A stretch of 64,000 nucleotides of DNA from an uncultured delta proteobacterium (GCA_963715335.1 CAVQRZ010000009.1:1-64000), one strand, 5' to 3'. Shown: positions 12,001 to 45,000, numbered from the stretch's first letter. Program-made: the numbers.

Positions 12001-15000
12001 AAGCCCCTATTTCCTGGTAAAGCCCGCCTGGCTGTTGTCAATTCCGATAATGCGTATAAGCTTTTAATCATCGCGATCCCTTAGTATAAGAATTCCAACG
12101 ACCACGAAGGAGGTTCGATGCACGCGTTGGTGAAAAAAGACCCTGTCCCTGGATTGAGCCTGGCAGAACAGCCGGAACCGGAGATCGGTATTAATGATGT
12201 GCTGATTAAGGTCAAGCGCAGCGCGATCTGCGGCACGGATCTGCATATCTATAACTGGGACGCCTGGGCGGAAAAGACGATCCCCGTGCCGATGGTGATC
12301 GGCCACGAGTTTGTCGGTGAGATCGTTGAGGTCGGCTCCAACGTCATCGATTTCTCGCCGGGGCAGATTGTTTCCGGCGAAGGACACGTTGTATGCGGTC
12401 GCTGCCGCAACTGCATGGCTGGAAAACGCCACCTGTGCGCCCATACCAGCGGGGTTGGGGTGGACAGACCAGGGGCCTTTGCCGAGTACCTGTCTTTACC
12501 TGTGTCGAATGTCTGGGTGCACCGCCCGAACATCGATCTGGAGGTGGCGACTCTCTTCGATCCGCTGGGTAACGCGGTGCATACGGCGTTGCAATACGAC
12601 CTGCTCGGCGAGGATGTGCTGATAACAGGCGCCGGGCCGATCGGCGTCATGGCGGCAGCTGTCTGTCGACACGCCGGCGCGCGCTACGTGGTGGTCACCG
12701 ATATCAACCCGAAGCGCCTGGAGTTGGCCAGAAGACTGGGGGCGACTTGCACGGTGGATGTGACCGGTGACACCATCGCCGGCGCGCAGCAGCGGCTGGG
12801 CATGGCGGAAGGCTTTGACGTGGGGCTGGAAATGTCAGGCAGCCCGGCGGCGTTTAAGGAGATGCTGGCCAACATGAAGCACGGCGGCAAGATTGCCATG
12901 CTCGGTATCCCGGAGAATGATATGACGGTCGACTGGAACACGGTGATCTTCAACATGCTGACCCTGAAGGGGATCTACGGCCGTGAGATGTATGAAACCT
13001 GGTACAAGATGTCGGTGATGGTGGAGTCGGGTCTGGACATCAGCCCGGTGATCACCCACCGCCTGCACTATACGGAGTTTGAAACGGGCTTTGCCGCCAT
13101 GCAGAGCGGCGAAGCATGTAAAGTGATTCTCAACTGGGACACCTGACACAACGGACCCAGCCAATCGGTGGGCGATGACGGAGTCGAGCATTGAAAGATC
13201 AATTTTATGAACACTTAAGCGCCGAGCTGGACGGTATCGCATCGGCCGGTCTGTACAAGAACGAACGCCTCATCACCACACCACAGGGAGCTCATGTTGG
13301 CGTGCGCAGTGGTGGTGAGGTGCTCAACCTCTGCGCTAACAACTATCTCGGCCTGGCCCAACATCCAGAGGTGAACCTCGCCGCCCAAAAGGCGCTTGAG
13401 GAGTGGGGTTTCGGTATGGCGTCGGTGCGTTTCATCTGCGGCACGCAGACCCTGCACAAGGCGCTGGAAGAGGCGCTCAGTGACTTTCTCGGGATGGCCG
13501 ACACGATCCTCTACCCATCATGTTTTGACGCCAACGGCGGCTTGTTTGAGACCCTGTTGGCTGATGAGGATGCCGTTATCTCCGATGAGCTCAACCACGC
13601 CAGCATCATCGACGGCGTGCGCCTCTGCAAGGCGCAACGCTACCGTTACCGCAACAACAATATGGCCGATCTCGAAGATCAGCTCAAAGCGGCGGCAGGA
13701 GCGCGCTTCAAGCTGATCACCACCGACGGCGTCTTCTCAATGGATGGCTACATCGCCAAAATCGATGAAATCTGTGATTTGGCCGAACGGTATGATGCCA
13801 TGGTGCATGTCGACGATTCACACGCCACCGGATTTGTCGGCCACGGCGGTCGCGGCACGCACGAATATCGTGGCTGCATGGGACGGGTGGATATCATCAG
13901 CGGGACGCTTGGCAAGGCCCTTGGCGGCGCCAGCGGCGGCTTCACCAGTGCCCGCAAAGAGGTGGTCGATTTGCTGCGCCAACGCTCGCGGCCTTATCTC
14001 TTCTCCAATTCGGTGGCGCCACCGGCCGTGGCTGGCGCCCTGAAAGCCCTCGAACTGGTGAGTGGCTCCAGCCTGCTGCGCGAACAGTTGCAGGAGAATA
14101 CTGCGATCTTCCGTGCAGGGCTGGAAAAACATGGCTTTGAGTTGTTGCCGGGTGAGCACCCAATCGTTCCGGTCATGCTTCATGATGCTGCAACCGCGGC
14201 GAGATTCGCCGAGGCCATGCTGGCACAGGGAATTTACGTGGTGGCCTTTTCCTATCCGGTCGTACCGCAAGGGCAAGCGCGCATCCGCACCCAGATGTCG
14301 GCCGCCCTGACGCCGGATGATTTGACCTTTGCCATCGATGCCTTTGGCAAGGTGAAGCAAAAGCTGGGCTTCTAGTCCGCCAATTCAGGAACAGCTGAGC
14401 GAGAAAGAGCCATGAACGGTTTGGCAGGTCAAAGCTGCATACCGTGCAGGGCGGGAGCAGCGCTGGCGACGGCTGAAGAGATCGCGGCCAATGAACAGGG
14501 GTTGCAGAGACATTTCAGCTTCGTCAAATGACGTAGGCGAGTGACAACTTCTGTTAACTTTGCCAAGGTCGTTCTAACCTTGATTTTAAAAAGCACTCTG
14601 CAAAGTTCAGTTTCAGCGTTGTTTTATAATAAAAATCGGTGCTCAATAAATTTTGGTACACTCTGTGCCATAAGTACACTTCTCAATGAATTGATCGTTG
14701 CAGATAACGATTAAGAATCTCCGATAAAGGCAAAGCTAGAGAAATCTAGTGACGCAAAGCTACGGGTCCTGACCATTCGGGATAGCCGGGTTGCCGAAGA
14801 GATGAGTCACATTTCTTGGAATCCGGCTACAGAGGTATTCAAGAAGCGCTCATCTTCGGCAGAGGATGAGCGCTTCTCCTGTTTTTGCGGCAGCCTTTCT
14901 CCGGTGAATGTCCTCAGTCGAATGTTTCGATTGTTAGTTTATCGGCTGTTATTACCTTTACAAAGGAGAGTGAAAAAATGAACAAGACCATCGTAAATGC

Positions 15001-42000: not shown

Positions 42001-45000
42001 CTTCCTGCTTTGCAGCAGCCTTGGCTGGCTCTGTCTGCTTATGCTGGGGTTAGTCAAGTCTTTGCCTCAACTGTTTCCGTGGGTGACCTTTGCATCAAAG
42101 CATCGTTTCAAGTTAAATCGCCTGCCGGTTCTGGCAAAGGTTTCTCTGCTCTCAGTCGCTGTTGCTTGCTACATTGCCATGGTCCTTCTGTATATGCCTC
42201 GTGCAAACAATGCGGACGCCATCATGTTGGCAAGCTTGTTCGGCTGACCCAAAGCCCTGCGACCCTGAATCCGGGCCGCCTGGCAGGCGCCCGACAAGAG
42301 CTGCCTGTCATAAAGGGTTTAAGATCTTGCCTGTCACTTAGAAATGGCACACTTCTGCGTCGGTACGGGATTCGGCTTTGGTGACGCCAACTGGCTGGTA
42401 GAACAGTAAGTGCTGAATCCTTTGATGTTTCTGAAAATTTTCTGGTTGAGATGTTTTTTGGCTTGTTTCCTGCTAAATACTCAGGTAACCGAAGCCCTCA
42501 TTGTGAAAAGGATAAAAAAATGACAAAGAGTCAGAGTGTAAAACCATCAACCAACTTTACAAAACCTGCGGTGTCATTCGATGGATCGAAGAAGAAAATA
42601 CTCCTGGTTGACGATGTGAACTTGTTCATAGAGCTAGAAAAAACCTTTCTCCAGCGCAAGAAAGACTTCGAGATTCTGACTGCGAAAAGTGGCGAAGAGG
42701 CCTTAAGGATTGTCGAAGTTGAACGACCTGACCTTGTTTACCTGGACCTGCATATGCCGGGAATGAACGGCGATGAATGCTGCCGGCTGATCAAGGCCTC
42801 AGAGGGTGGCAAAAATACCCCGGTCGTTATGGTCACCTCAGATGGCGGCGAGGAGGTTAAATCCCGCTGCATCGCGGCGGGTTGCAACGAAATCATAACC
42901 AAGCCAATCAATCGGTCCTTTTTTCTTTCTTTTGCAAAAAGGTACCTCGATATTCACGAAAGGAAAGAGCCCAGGTATGCTTCACATATAAAAATAAAGT
43001 TTGGTCTGCAGAGGGATAATTTAGTGACCGACTATACGGTTAATTTCAATACCGGCGGTTTATTTACATCCTCGCCCAGATTGCTGCCGGTCGGCTCAAA
43101 ACTTTTTGTTGAATTCAGCTTGCCTGGGGATGACAAGATCATTTGTACCCAGGCCCGAGTCGCTTGGGCCAATGAAGGAGTGACCCCCCTAAAACGCGAT
43201 CTTCCTGTCGGTATGGGGATGGGCTTTGTCGGTATCAGTCTTGATGATAAGGGTGTCATCCGGCAATACATTGAGAATAATGCTCTCACCGCAGACTGGT
43301 AGAAAGATGCTCTCAAAACGTTTATAGCCAGCTGTCAGCTGCAGTTGTCTTTGCCATAACAGTTTCCGAAAAAATCTCCCGAGGCGATTACTGGCAACCC
43401 TTCTGTAGGCCGGTTATATATATAGACCCATGCCGTCAGCTTTTGGCCGGTGCTAAGGACTACTTCCTGCTTTACGCGAACATACTCCGTAGGTTCAGTG
43501 AAGCTTGGGCCACACTCTTCATACTGGTCCAGAGCAGATAATCCTTTGGCAGGCTCATGGAGGGAAAATACCTCACCTTTTACCTGCCGGGTTGGATCGT
43601 CTGAAGGCACGATGCCAGGGTAGTCATCGATTCTGTACAGTCGACCTTGATATGTTGCCTCGCCCACAAAAACCGCATAGCGAGCAAGGAGATGGTACAT
43701 CTCGCTTTCAGTATCTCTTCTCAGGGTTCCATATACGAACAAGTAGTCCAGCATTATTTCTTTTCCTTCAATCATTACACTTCTGAACCGAGGGAAGACC
43801 AGCCCTCGAAGTCCTTTATTTTAGCTGAACTACAATAATAATGGCCACCAGGAATTGATCCTCGTGGCCATCGTTTTATTGATTAACGAGCGTCTGAAAT
43901 ATCTCTATCAATAACACGCATGTGTTGTCTGGATGTTGTGTATCAGGAGAAAGGCCCTGATCCGATTCATAATATTAAGGTCTTTTATGTTTTATTAAGT
44001 GGTGCCGTATTTGCTGTCGGATAAGTTTACAGTTCAATGCAGTAGCCGAGATTTGGCGAATAAAATACTGTAATTATTGTATAAAAAGTACGGCATAATA
44101 ATTGCTGACTACTTAAGTCAGGTACTTTGAGTCATCATTTAAAAGCCCTCAAAGAGGGTATAGTCAAAAAATCAATATGACGATTTGTCGTTCAATAGTG
44201 AGACTGTCGGTTTTTATTACACTTTGTCTGGCTCTGTCTGTGGCTCATGGGGCTGTTGCCAAAGATGGGCCTACTGTCGACATCCGGTTCCAACAGGGGC
44301 TGATATCGGTGCAGAGCGAAAACGCCACCCTGGCCGAGGTGTTACGGGCCGTCGCCGGGGAAACCGGTATTCAGCTGCATATCCGCGATGAGGATTTCCA
44401 GCAGAAGAGTCCATGGTCTTTAGTCGACCGGCCTCTTCTGGAGGCGATCAGGCAGCTGGCAGGAACCCATAACATGGCGATTACCTTCGCAGACAGATCA
44501 AGCCAAGAGACAGCCAGACGGATTTCAAGTCTCTGGATTTTTGGCAACACGGCAGCATCACAGGCAGCACTTGAAGCTGCCATGGCCGTGGCGAGCCCCG
44601 ACACAGCTGAGCAGGTCCGAGCAAAAACCCATGAGGAGCTCAGCGATCCTGATCCGCTGGTCAGGCTCGGTGCGATCCAAAGGCTGGCCGACTCGCAAGA
44701 TCGGAATGATGTGATGATCCTGACCCGGGTCATGTTGGAAGATGATGACCCCGCGGTACGGGAACAGGCCCGTTCTGCCCTCGAAAAACTTACGGGCGAA
44801 GCCGCTGCTGTAACCGTTGAAAACGGTTTGGGCGACGCCGATTACCTGGTCCGGGCTGAGACCGTCCGTTTCCTGGCGCAGGCCGAACAGGGCCGCGTCA
44901 CCCCGAGCCTGGGGCAGGTCTTGTTCAGCGACCCGGACCCATTGATTCGCCTCGAAGCCGTACTGGCGATCGCACAACACCACGGCGAAGCGTCGCGGGC

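Follow-up and report, generated by a model that had tools for sequence, protein, structure and literature searches.

We lean towards reading an operon of ~25 kb in an uncultured, Desulfuromonadales-type sediment bacterium as encoding a single envelope-spanning, proton-driven machine that displays a giant adhesin. Gene linkage and predicted folds suggest that such a machine would export or hold the adhesin under the control of c-di-GMP. The reading would give the long-unexplained core complex, the source of myxobacterial gliding, a possible job as an adhesin-linked motor under c-di-GMP riboswitches. The operon lies in a stretch of 64,000 nucleotides (the window).

The genes from the giant g00895 through g00905 share the + strand and follow one another closely, at intervals of −34 to +81 nt. 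The ORFs were found where the survey had placed them, and those following the giant gene encode, in order, 1711, 170, 630, 1042, 221, 103, 230, 165, 164, 483, 271 and 283 aa, all on the + strand. The domain calls were likewise recovered (DUF11/CLIPPER plus isopeptide, OmpA, TPR, MotA_ExbB, two ExbD, AgmX/PglI C-terminal domain, Response_reg plus PilZ). The same genome holds a second copy of the unit on contig C16. The survey had the unit end with the response-regulator-PilZ gene (42451..43302, + strand; 283 aa; Pfam Response_reg 2.3e-24, PilZ 2.6e-9). This gene does lie behind g00905, and its counterpart on C16 (76% identity) stands directly behind the g00905 copy there, but among the 80 related loci just two have it, and it is a lineage-specific appendage.

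The core complex was described by Luciano et al. 2011 as GltC, D, E and G with AglR, Q and S and an additional gene without a myxobacterial homologue, in Gammaproteobacteria, one betaproteobacterium and Geobacter; that account left its function unknown (PMC3169522). The survey had equated it with g00898-g00905, and the order and sizes of the genes agree with those of Gura_3077-3070 and GM21_0438-0445 (Table S3, PMC3169522), so that by gene order and size g00898-g00905 is this core complex. The secreted TPR-type protein g00898 (32206..34098, + strand; 630 aa) corresponds in size and place to Gura_3077 (629 aa) and GM21_0438 (626 aa), both listed as MXAN_2541 homologues in that table, and is the GltC counterpart. 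It is followed by a 1042-aa TPR lipoprotein with a YbgF/CpoB-type domain (34095..37223, + strand; TIGR02795 94.2 bits, cut-off 90.1), the GltD counterpart (Gura_3076, 1108 aa, listed as MXAN_4870; PMC3169522), and by a 221-aa TPR lipoprotein (37220..37885, + strand) with a weak GltE match (2e-6), the GltE counterpart, corresponding to Gura_3075 (240 aa, MXAN_4869; PMC3169522). The next gene, encoding a 103-aa secreted protein (37934..38245, + strand), was found in 39/39 long loci and takes the place of the 'additional gene'; its position coincides with a gap in the locus tags at Gura_3074.

The predicted stator (38211..39894, + strand) comprises an ExbB/TolQ/AglR-like protein (38211-38903; Pfam MotA_ExbB 8e-25) and two ExbD/TolR/AglQS-like proteins (38906-39403 and 39400-39894; ExbD 2.9e-12 and 7.7e-15), with TolQ as the closest solved chains. 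The 483-aa TonB/TolA-like transducer g00905 (39906..41357, + strand) begins with ~175 cytoplasmic residues that include a coiled coil, crosses the membrane once by a helix and continues through a linker rich in Pro and Lys to a C-terminal domain of AgmX/PglI type (NF033768 56.9 bits, cut-off 40). It resembles GltG: g00905 and its C16 copy were the two best matches of the GltG profile genome-wide, at 45.5 bits against a cut-off of 650 for g00905. Matches to the NCBIfam equivalogs GltG and GltE both fell far short of the cut-offs.

That the core is homologous to the Agl-Glt machinery (Luciano et al. 2011, PMC3169522) and that the transducer has a GltG-type tail domain would also suit a surface-motility machine, with a motor that moves the adhesin along the cell for gliding on minerals, on the model of Agl-Glt in Myxococcus or SprB/GldLM in Flavobacterium. 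The transducer of the clade that carries the giant gene has a long cytoplasmic N-terminal part, which fits as well; of the 12 more distant gammaproteobacterial homologues that gave a match, 11 align only from around residue 146-301 onwards and one (G171) from residue 12. However, the scan of 16 proteins showed nothing homologous to the cytoplasmic or Group A parts, and a tie to the cell wall through OmpA and Pal favours a fixed rather than a travelling outer-membrane part. We regard motility as very unlikely.

The giant fibrillar adhesin g00895 (16304..26413, + strand; 3369 aa) has a Sec-type signal peptide and CLIPPER/DUF11, DUF7507, DUF7619, SdrD_B and isopeptide (RrgB_K2N) domains. In a model of its C-terminal part, a sandwich matched the CLIPPER structure 9IFR (Foldseek E 1.2e-8, TM 0.75 on the target; VIA Z 12.9). 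The C-terminal part is conserved and finishes in an alpha/beta domain of ~90 aa, for which profile comparison gave no likeness to the OmpA domain of g00896. The tail was kept in 39/39 long loci, the N-terminal 500 aa in the genomes of only 23 of 50 relatives. A variable head with a conserved tail is what would be expected if the tail meets the machine.

For the outer-membrane protein g00896 (26474..31609, + strand) the survey had reported OmpA and nothing else, a description that proved incomplete. The ORF spans 1711 aa, or 1698 aa from the probable ATG at 26513, and runs from a signal peptide and an unstructured N-terminal stretch through two OmpA-like peptidoglycan-binding domains and beta-sandwich domains to a large outer-membrane barrel, which the AF2 model of the last 1190 aa places at the C-terminal end with ~26-29 long strands (pLDDT 70-87 in the barrel region; pLDDT 60 and pTM 0.38 overall). 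The Foldseek matches were large outer-membrane barrels throughout, with LptD, MtrB, SprA and TonB-dependent transporters at the top (prob 1.0, though at low TM-scores of 0.12-0.29). The Pal-like OmpA-family lipoprotein (14978..15502, + strand, ATG at 14978, lipobox ...LIVTGC; TIGR02802 Pal_lipo 131.5 bits, cut-off 125.35; Pfam OmpA 1.9e-22) is encoded upstream of the giant gene. A Pal-like gene lies 3' of g00905 in 16/39 long loci and 5' of the giant gene in G005.

The presence of TonB-dependent transporters among these fold matches raises the thought of an uptake or exchange device, with a TonB-like motor opening the g00896 barrel for import and the giant protein serving as a surface capture arm. 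Yet a Pfam scan of g00896 found no TonB-dependent-receptor plug and no other recognised secretion domain, and in Pfam and NCBIfam scans the operon showed neither a plug domain nor genes for a binding protein or an inner-membrane transporter. Moreover, CLIPPER stalks are described from fibrillar adhesins (10.1101/2025.04.25.650565), and attachment suits c-di-GMP control better than nutrition does. Import is the least probable of the readings considered here.

Conservation was followed in 80 loci around g00898 relatives (at least 49% identity), 39 of them at least 19 kb long. The survey's counts for this set came out identically, with g00895 and g00897-905 each in 39/39 long loci and g00896 in 38/39 with the original flanks; in the remaining locus (L064) g00896 sits behind the giant gene, just beyond the 10-kb flank, and extending the flank brings the count to 39/39. 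Gene order was unchanged in 37/39 long loci. Among 301 genomes of the window's class searched, 57 carry g00898; in 56 of these a g00896 relative lay directly 5' of the g00898 relative, both genes sharing one contig and strand. We also sampled 400 genomes from the class of one gammaproteobacterial relative, of which 76 had a g00898 relative, and fetched 20 loci. Only the four closest contained the giant gene and g00896, in permuted order in 4/4. G003, G076 and G345 keep the linkage as core, giant gene, g00896; the giant gene lies behind the core in G382 and G289a, where it reaches the edge of the fetched stretch. The 16 more distant cores (16/16) had neither gene within the flanks fetched, and other neighbours there.

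The claim that every relative has g00895, g00896 and the 170-aa gene before the core thus holds for relatives of at least 49% identity, but g00895 and g00896 are absent from the 16 distant gammaproteobacterial cores. In a tree of g00898, giant-linked loci fall on one side of a branch with 100% support and these 16 cores on the other, so that the label changes once. The 170-aa secreted protein g00897 (31690..32202, + strand; signal peptide, coiled coil, beta-rich C-terminus) matched no Pfam or NCBIfam family and only unnamed clusters in the ESM Atlas. Its gene was directly 5' of the g00898 relative in 79/80 loci and in 20/20 gammaproteobacterial loci. On these counts the widely conserved unit is the nine genes g00897-g00905. 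The 11-gene unit of the survey, g00895-g00905, is linked in one clade, with g00895 and g00896 as a clade-specific add-on to the nine-gene core.

The distant cores indicate that the core does not need the adhesin, and the link could be one of co-regulation only. The operon may then hold two modules, a self-sufficient adhesin-barrel pair for export and anchoring and a Tol-Pal-like envelope-maintenance core that does not act on the adhesin; for example, the core, switched on alongside the pair, could reinforce the attachment of the outer membrane to the cell wall at places under the pull of a very long adhesin. The Tol-Pal flavour of the locus agrees with this, as Pal_lipo and YbgF/CpoB exceed their cut-offs and TolQ is the best stator match, and no tool result indicates contact of a core protein with barrel or adhesin. 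However, the linkage outlasts rearrangement of gene order and spans phyla, which goes beyond what shared regulation tends to maintain; TolB is absent among the 16 proteins scanned; and the TolQ and TolR equivalog cut-offs were missed by far (59 vs 221 and 20.6 vs 127). There are further Pal-like genes elsewhere in this genome, and the locus is therefore not the housekeeping Tol-Pal. We consider two separate modules unlikely, though the likeliest of the alternatives.

Four c-di-GMP-I aptamers precede the operon genes, as reported by the survey. One (14720-14799, RF01051 75.4 bits, gathering score 35) lies ahead of the Pal-like gene with its own 16-bp intrinsic terminator (14842-14877), together spanning 14720..14877 on the + strand. 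The others form three tandem units of 216 bp (15628..16225, + strand), identified by cmscan, Tandem Repeats Finder (period 216, 2.7 copies, 97% matches, 15628-16217) and their terminators. Each unit holds an aptamer (15629-15708, 15844-15923 and 16060-16139, + strand) and a terminator stem (~15751-15782, 15967-15998 and 16183-16214, + strand) followed by a T-run. The cmscan clan winner for all four aptamers was RF03167 (61.5-66.3 bits, gathering score 59), but RF01051 scores higher on them (70.2-75.4 bits, gathering score 35), and the RF01051 label stands. Riboswitches were directly 5' of the giant gene, or of Pal and then the giant gene, in 14 of 23 evaluable relatives, making the linkage, seen by the survey in 2 of 5 relatives, frequent but not universal; an RF01051 match ahead of the adhesin was absent in 9 of 21 relatives sharing the adhesin head. 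Loci of relatives carry 1-4 riboswitches, with four in the cultured Citrifermentans bremense R1, and the second copy in this genome has two. RNA folding of the units did not discriminate between c-di-GMP switching the operon on and off.

In the machine that we favour, transcription would start ahead of either the Pal-like gene or the tandem array and pass one plus three riboswitches, whose individual terminators may make expression of the ~25-kb operon steeply dependent on c-di-GMP. The CLIPPER adhesin would be exported by Sec, its variable N-terminal part passing through the g00896 barrel to the cell surface while the conserved C-terminal part remains with the barrel, which would be tethered to peptidoglycan by its two OmpA-like domains and the Pal-like lipoprotein. 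The nine-gene core, predicted to supply a stator of one ExbB-type and two ExbD-type proteins, the GltG-type transducer, three TPR proteins and a pair of small secreted proteins, would use the flow of protons to move the transducer. The transducer would span the periplasm along the TPR scaffold and act on the barrel-adhesin module, driving or gating export or exposure of the adhesin, or putting it under tension. Two-partner and autotransporter adhesins need no energy source to traverse the outer membrane; a motor is thus not obviously required, which counts against the proposed machine. So do the distant cores that lack the adhesin-barrel pair, the negative Pfam result for a plug or secretion domain in g00896, the low TM-scores and modest overall model confidence for its barrel, and the 9 of 21 relatives in which no RF01051 match precedes the shared head. 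The points on its side are the linkage and its survival in permuted order, the tight spacing, the folds, the head-tail pattern, the riboswitches and the precedents.

Among these precedents, Myxococcus xanthus Agl-Glt (GltABHK platform, CglB) shares an AglRQS-type proton-driven stator, a GltG-type transducer and TPR proteins. The proposal there is that the TonB_C domains of GltG/J work on outer-membrane barrels at their N-terminal extensions and so expose the adhesin CglB (Islam et al. 10.1101/2020.07.22.216333). That machine is coupled to barrels controlling adhesin exposure, a coupling that is proposed here from the genes. In contrast to the Myxococcus system as described there, the candidate adhesin is a 3369-aa CLIPPER fibre instead of a von Willebrand A lipoprotein, one giant OmpA-tethered barrel stands in place of the small GltA/B/H barrels, and the locus has riboswitch control and no cytoplasmic platform genes, with GltG and GltE matches far below equivalog level. 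Tol-Pal (TolQRA, TolB, Pal, CpoB/YbgF) has in common the TolQ-like stator and, above NCBIfam cut-offs, the Pal-type lipoprotein and YbgF-type TPR domain, but the operon lacks TolB and has two ExbD/TolR paralogues, a GltG-type transducer tail, three large TPR proteins and the adhesin linkage.

In Salmonella SPI4, the proton-conducting, MotAB-like pair SiiAB assists the giant adhesin SiiE (Kirchweger et al. 10.1101/641415). Both loci encode a MotAB/ExbBD-like inner-membrane pair with a giant non-fimbrial adhesin, and the means by which the proton gradient helps is unknown for SiiAB in that account. Unlike SiiE, which a type 1 secretion system exports, g00895 has a Sec signal peptide, and the operon, in place of an ABC transporter, membrane fusion protein and TolC-like gene, encodes a barrel of its own together with a TonB-like transducer and TPR proteins. 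The type IX secretion and gliding system (GldLM motor, SprA translocon, SprB adhesin; PMC8986121) likewise combines an ExbBD-related proton motor, a giant adhesin and a very large barrel, and there the motor powers the adhesin's export through the barrel and its movement; our host belongs to a different phylum, and Pfam and NCBIfam scans of the operon proteins gave no match to GldL/M, PorV or C-terminal sorting-domain families. The CLIPPER adhesin B9T28_05395 of Acinetobacter silvestris (PDB 9IFR, 10.1101/2025.04.25.650565) resembles g00895 in its signal peptide, its stalk, built of CLIPPER domains and isopeptide domains related to them, and its separate C-terminal anchor part, but terminates in an OmpA-like domain, whereas here the OmpA domains are on the separate barrel protein g00896.

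Triple tandem c-di-GMP-I riboswitches occur as Bc3-5 of Bacillus thuringiensis (PMC4759541), and the survey of riboswitch arrays by Sherlock et al. 2022 counted 347 doublets and 12 triplets and expected such arrays to respond more digitally (PMC9481103). As in these known cases, complete riboswitches with an expression platform each stand in series before one gene; unlike them, the arrays here head a 25-kb envelope-machine operon in Desulfuromonadales-type bacteria and vary from 1-4 copies among orthologous loci. The core complex of Geobacter uraniireducens and Geobacter sp. M21 (PMC3169522) agrees in genes, order and sizes and occupies one region on one strand. Apparently beyond that paper's account, the core includes a further conserved gene, g00897, and in one clade it shares its operon with the genes for a giant adhesin and an OmpA-barrel protein, behind c-di-GMP riboswitches. 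This clade includes a Citrifermentans relative of the original Geobacter examples, C. bremense R1, with a g00898 66% identical to that of the window and full synteny.

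Between 14.7 and 43.3 kb, every long ORF of the window lies on the + strand. The gene directly upstream, for a glycine C-acetyltransferase (13191–14375; TIGR01822, 637 bits), is unrelated housekeeping and forms the left border of the unit. The unit itself comprises a gene for a Pal-like lipoprotein (14978–15502, +; Pal 131.5 bits against a cut-off of 125.35), the gene for the giant DUF11/CLIPPER adhesin g00895 of 3369 aa (16304–26413, +), and g00896, a 1711-aa ORF with an OmpA domain (26474–31609, +; 1698 aa from the ATG at 26513). These are followed on the same strand by nine genes, g00897 to g00905, encoding proteins of 170, 630, 1042, 221, 103, 230, 165, 164 and 483 aa with intergenic gaps of −34 to +81 nt. 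A gene for a 271-aa membrane protein (41432–42247, +) lies between the last of these, the transducer gene, and that of RR-PilZ, a 283-aa protein combining a response regulator with a PilZ domain (42451–43302, +). Signal peptides were read from the sequences of the giant protein, g00896, g00897, g00898 and g00901, and lipoboxes from those of the Pal-like protein, g00899 and g00900.

In Pfam and NCBIfam searches, the giant protein matched PF01345 (DUF11) with 155.9 bits in 6 stretches and TIGR01451 with 233.6 bits in 8 stretches; TIGR04226 (100.2 bits), an isopeptide-forming fimbrial domain, DUF7507, DUF7619, SdrD_B and DUF7927 were also found. DUF11 has been renamed CLIPPER, according to the accessible part of a preprint (10.1101/2025.04.25.650565). 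As a long secreted protein with repeated CLIPPER domains, g00895 has the make-up of a CLIPPER/DUF11 fibrillar adhesin and, judged by this family, would be exposed at the surface. The g00896 protein carried two OmpA-like stretches, both within its first 390 residues. TPR families matched the 630-, 1042- and 221-aa proteins, and the stator genes gave one MotA_ExbB and two ExbD matches (Pfam). g00905 carried the AgmX/PglI C-terminal domain (NF033768, 56.9 bits; cut-off 40) and weak full-length matches to the GltG and GltJ profiles; its sequence starts with approximately 175 residues read as cytoplasmic, followed by a single membrane helix and then a linker rich in Pro and Lys.

In the accessible sections of Luciano et al. 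2011 (PMC3169522), the core complex consists of gltC, D, E and G, aglR, Q and S and one additional gene. These genes cluster in Geobacter, in a single betaproteobacterium and in Gammaproteobacteria, and the complex is described as 'of unknown function'. Table S3 of that study lists Gura_3077 (629 aa, GltC type), Gura_3076 (1108 aa, GltD type) and Gura_3075 (240 aa, GltE type), then, after a gap in the tags (Gura_3074), Gura_3073 (211 aa, AglR type) and Gura_3072 (166 aa); the figure list places Gura_3071 and Gura_3070 in the same cluster, and GM21_0438-0445 show the same pattern (PMC3169522). The survey's finding had matched g00898-g00905 to this complex, and the match held: seven Glt/Agl-type genes lie in one region, and their order and sizes fit the Geobacter entries. 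The additional gene, for which Luciano et al. report no counterpart in myxobacteria, is represented by g00901 (103 aa). It is flanked by the GltE-like and AglR-like genes, occupies the position of the tag gaps Gura_3074 and GM21_0441, and was found in all 39 related loci of at least 19 kb. Citrifermentans bremense R1, which we take to be a close relative of Luciano's Geobacter sp. M21, has a fully syntenic locus whose g00898 homologue is 66% identical. Membership of the monophyletic clade that includes the M. xanthus proteins is putative and would follow from Luciano's trees for Geobacter together with this C. bremense identity.

Across the whole genome, the two best matches to the GltG profile were g00905 and its copy on contig C16. 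g00905 stayed below the cut-off of the GltG equivalog NF033760 (45.5 bits versus 650), the tail domain NF033768 being the only one passed, and the GltE equivalog NF033758 was also missed (27 bits versus 225). A full equivalog-level Tol-Pal set was not present: besides Pal, only the YbgF/CpoB domain of the 1042-aa protein passed, barely (94.2 bits; curated cut-off 90.1), whereas the stator proteins missed TolQ (59.1 versus 221) and TolR (20.6–21.7 versus 127.3), and no TolB match was found among the 16 proteins scanned. Of the domains expected for TonB-ExbB-ExbD with a TonB-dependent transporter, Pfam gave ExbB and ExbD in the unit and neither TonB_C nor Plug on g00905 or g00896 at E≤0.01. A PDB sequence search with g00905 gave no match. 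The N-terminal ~150–175 cytoplasmic residues of g00905 (39906–40430) aligned by tblastn in four adhesin-linked gammaproteobacterial loci and in one further relative, G171. In the remaining 11 distant loci with a match, the alignment began only at residue 146–301, which fits the short GltG homologues of Marinobacter and Saccharophagus, 324–325 aa in Luciano's Table S3 (PMC3169522).

The survey had described adhesin, g00896 and core as one conserved 11-gene unit behind tandem c-di-GMP-I riboswitches, and the observation was confirmed. Its synteny counts were reproduced: among 80 loci, 39 of at least 19 kb contained g00895 (39/39), g00896 (38/39) and g00897-g00905 (39/39), with the gene order unchanged in 37. 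The single locus in which g00896 had been missed is L064, from a gammaproteobacterial MAG; there the core is followed by the giant gene (4370 aa) and, just past the flank, by a g00896 homologue (1714 aa, 54% identical). As an independent, taxon-sampled test, we searched 301 genomes of the window's class with the g00898 profile and the last 600 aa of g00896, which matched 58 and 68 genomes, respectively. Apart from G000, 57 genomes carried g00898; in 56 of them, with G519 as the exception, a g00896 homologue lay directly upstream of it on the same strand of the same contig. The ten genomes with a barrel match but without g00898 held weaker paralogues only (24–44% identity). The unit was patchily distributed, occurring in 33 of 88 genera and in three of 23 genomes of the window's family; it was not found in the other genome of the window's genus. 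The g00896 and g00898 matches of G606, G631 and G735 were in several pieces, some with in-frame stops, and these copies appear to be decaying. Homologues of g00898 with 63–70% identity also occurred on contigs labelled Arthrobacter (L029), Parcubacteria (L042), Chloroflexota (L043), Actinomycetota (L046), Verrucomicrobiota (L034) and Zixiibacteriota (L004), measuring 35 kb (L046), 19 kb (L034) and 5–14 kb (the other four). These labels are probably binning errors and not transfers, so that phylum counts by MAG label are not trustworthy. Because the linkage is near-universal in the clade, survives rearrangement and crosses phyla, this gene-neighbourhood evidence argues that adhesin, barrel and motor may work together.

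The 11-gene conservation held within this clade but not beyond it. Of 400 genomes from the class of a gammaproteobacterial relative, 76 matched the g00898 profile; we inspected 20 of these 76, on long contigs and spanning the score range, with ~20 kb on each side. A g00897 homologue lay directly upstream of the g00898 relative in all 20 loci, and tblastn recovered the complete g00897-g00905 block in 16. Only the four best-scoring loci (≥837 bits) had a giant gene behind the core; a g00896 homologue followed the giant gene in two of them and would lie past the fetched stretch in the other two. In the other 16 loci (≤645 bits), neither gene was found within the flanks, some of which were shortened by contig ends. 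Downstream of the core in G171, 2.7 kb were available and the next gene encodes a multihaem cytochrome. The existence of giant-less cores shows that the motor is not specific to giant-adhesin cargo, and since they have other neighbours, the outer-membrane module is exchangeable and the conserved core comprises nine genes.

We scanned the neighbours of seven giant-less cores. Several of the cores, but not all, shared flanking genes for ApbE, a 900–980-aa propeller protein with a hydrazine-synthase-alpha-like domain, thioredoxin, DUF3570 and small OMP_myx_plus barrels (TIGR04565, 147 bits versus a cut-off of 60). These genes may encode a different kind of outer-membrane module, redox-flavoured, in which the barrels belong to a family that takes its name from myxobacteria. 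In L101, L109, L127, L107 and others, these genes precede the nine-gene core together with one for an SH3+barrel protein; the HZS-alpha/TolB-like propeller protein matched a CxxCH motif, and a GspC-like protein is encoded behind the core of L102.

A quick maximum-likelihood tree was built from 34 relatives of g00898 and rooted at the midpoint (a careful search was unfinished). A branch with an SH-aLRT support of 100% set all giant-linked loci apart from the others, and this label needs one change. At the midpoint root they were nested among giant-less gammaproteobacterial loci, which suggests that the adhesin-linked clade is derived. Loci of the Desulfuromonadia/Nitrospirota type (order giant, barrel, core) were themselves nested within gammaproteobacterial ones arranged as core, giant, barrel, in agreement with the transfer of the core into Geobacter inferred in the accessible text of Luciano et al. 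(PMC3169522).

We modelled the last 1190 residues of g00896 with AlphaFold2 from an alignment of 50 sequences. Overall support was modest (pLDDT 60, pTM 0.38), with well-supported beta-sandwich domains and, over the last ~520 residues, about 26–29 long antiparallel strands (pLDDT 70–87). The best Foldseek matches, LptD, MtrB, the type IX translocon SprA, TonB-dependent transporters and SlpA, were all large outer-membrane barrels (probability 1.0, TM only 0.12–0.29), and we read the predicted C-terminus as 'a large barrel' and nothing finer. Pfam and NCBIfam gave no POTRA/TPS, autotransporter barrel or C-terminal sorting domain with PorV/SprA for the giant protein or g00896 at E≤0.01. The first 500 residues of the adhesin were recognizable in only 23 of 50 relatives' genomes, its tail in all long loci. 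Its last 400 residues were modelled as a CLIPPER sandwich, matching the solved CLIPPER domain 9IFR, with a confident beta-alpha-beta-alpha-beta domain of ~90 residues at the end; fold searches were dominated by the sandwich. A likeness of this last domain to OmpA, suspected from its sequence, was not detected by hhalign against the g00896 alignment that contains OmpA (probability 0.3%), and a PDB sequence search with the tail returned nothing meaningful. A complex prediction for the mature N-terminal 200 aa of g00896 and the C-terminal 109 aa of g00905, both entered as alignments, scored 0.00 and is uninformative either way. Taken together, the predicted folds point to a fibre that is secreted, a pore in the outer membrane that is anchored to the wall, and a transducer of the Tol/Ton type.

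Four aptamers were found by cmscan, starting at 14720, 15629, 15844 and 16060. The variant model RF03167 was the clan winner by E-value (61.5–66.3 bits, gathering score 59), and RF01051 scored 70.2–75.4 bits on the same aptamers (gathering score 35). An expression platform, consisting of a hairpin and a T-run, lies behind each of the four. All four aptamers have GACGCAAAG at the RF03167 consensus site GACGCGAAg (G after GACGC) and keep GGC before CAAA, both of which we take to be ligand-contacting positions. According to the accessible part of Sherlock 2022 (PMC9481103), a G at one of the contact positions goes with c-di-GMP and an A with c-AMP-GMP. As the aptamers differ from the RF03167 consensus at GACGCAAAG, they were treated as putative ordinary c-di-GMP-I aptamers, with 3'3'-cGAMP as a less probable ligand. 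A promoter scan 5' of the aptamers gave 0 sites. The whole genome contains 18 c-di-GMP-I aptamers; three of them, at C21:61107–62104 (+) on another contig (77.2, 73.5 and 73.5 bits, within 1 kb), are another tandem set.

The last three aptamers of the window belong to tandem repeats with a unit of 216 bp (2.7 copies, 97% matches). Among contigs from four DNA runs, none spanned this array, and two contigs of lower likeness joined 15524/15526 to 16058 with 30-letter sides, omitting 531–533 bases. These junctions may derive from single-unit relatives or from the repeat itself. Real arrays are nevertheless supported, because relatives have them: three units in G009 and four in the isolate C. bremense R1.

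In the 23 genomes with the same adhesin head, we scored RF01051 on the coding strand over the 700 nt in front of the adhesin gene. Matches preceded the adhesin gene in 12: three in G009, two each in G007, G037 and G011, one each in G006, G013, G032, G012, G014, G017 and G016, and one before each of the two copies of the unit in G018. Nine had no match in this interval, and two were interrupted by contig ends and not evaluable. Two relatives whose adhesin head differs can be added: in C. bremense R1, four aptamers precede a 2899-aa giant gene, and in a Nitrospirota MAG there are two, followed by the Pal-like and then the giant gene. The riboswitch linkage thus extends to 14 of the 23 evaluable relatives (12 same-head and two different-head) and was not found in nine.

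The direction of control was approached by progressive and constrained folding. Terminator probability was 0.06–0.88 in the free and 0.24–1 in the aptamer-forced state, ranges that do not tell one state from the other; in unit 0 the constraint evidently had no effect. The P1 3' strand CGAAGAGAUG is complementary both to the terminator 5' arm CUCAUCUUCGGC and to a conserved segment just downstream, a dual complementarity also present in G009, G007, G037, G013 and G011. Taken alone, the predicted pairing of P1 with the terminator arm would mean an OFF switch that terminates with ligand bound; the conserved segment in between could pair with P1 equally well. In four other loci (G032, G014 and two in G018) the platform is of another kind: a long hairpin extends close to GGGAGAUG...AUG, and no convincing terminator was found there.

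The 271-aa membrane protein had no family match. Its gene was found in none of the 80 related loci and not in the C16 copy of the unit; a paralogue lies on contig C10 (57% identical), and the gene looks like an insertion into the unit. The PilZ domain of RR-PilZ contains the RxxxR motif as RKEPR and, ~25 residues later, has NFNTGG where the usual second motif is D/N-x-S-x-x-G. Judged from these motifs, c-di-GMP binding is plausible but not certain.

Contig C16 is filled by a second copy of the whole unit (49–87% identical, with two aptamers), in which the RR-PilZ gene lies directly behind the transducer gene. This copy is either a paralogue or DNA of a co-binned relative; duplicated cores in several genomes are reported in the accessible text of Luciano et al. 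2011 (PMC3169522). At the end of contig C2 (1–1050, −) we observed a riboswitch (971–1050), a Pal-like gene (79% identical to the window's) and the first 58 residues of an RR-PilZ gene. This is an incomplete third copy of the unit or else a variant of its arrangement.

The function of the core complex has been open since 2011. Its authors called its study a route to understanding gliding evolution (Luciano et al. 2011, accessible sections, PMC3169522), and the original function was still not known in 2020, according to the part of a later paper by the same authors available to us (10.1101/2020.07.22.216333). Our full-text literature search found no paper assigning the complex a function or mentioning the neighbour genes. 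The linkage described here provides a candidate cargo (the giant CLIPPER adhesin), a candidate outer-membrane partner (the OmpA-tethered large barrel) and a regulatory input (c-di-GMP). This makes a 15-year-old question testable by ordinary genetics in cultured, non-pathogenic bacteria, namely C. bremense R1 from this study and two strains listed by Luciano et al., Geobacter uraniireducens Rf4 and Geobacter sp. M21. Redrawn as a nine-gene core with interchangeable outer-membrane modules, the unit is consistent with proposals that the gliding machine evolved in modules. An adhesin that is linked to a motor and gated by c-di-GMP could have a role in the attachment of metal-reducing sediment bacteria to minerals or electrodes.

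The interpretation attached to the survey's finding was supported in part. It is possible, although we consider it rather doubtful, that the core complex originally powered the display of surface proteins anchored in the outer membrane, and that the gliding machine of myxobacteria derives from such a machine for adhesin display, present here with two c-di-GMP control layers and a winch action on the fibre. In such a machine, the serial riboswitches would decide whether the 25-kb operon is made. In the window's genome, RR-PilZ, encoded behind both copies, may add a second layer as a c-di-GMP-dependent brake or clutch. YcgR acts in this way on the flagellar stator; by analogy, the target of RR-PilZ may be the ExbB-type stator or the long cytoplasmic arm of the transducer. 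The motor would then be a winch that tensions or retracts the 3369-residue, isopeptide-locked fibre.

Among known systems, Agl-Glt is the closest worked-out relative of the one described here; in the accessible part of the 2020 paper, GltG/J are proposed to act on outer-membrane barrels and thereby expose an adhesin (10.1101/2020.07.22.216333). A second precedent is SiiAB-SiiE, in which a proton channel serves a giant adhesin, as described in the available part of that report (10.1101/641415). The present system is a variant of these Agl-Glt and Tol/Ton-type envelope motors that serve adhesins.
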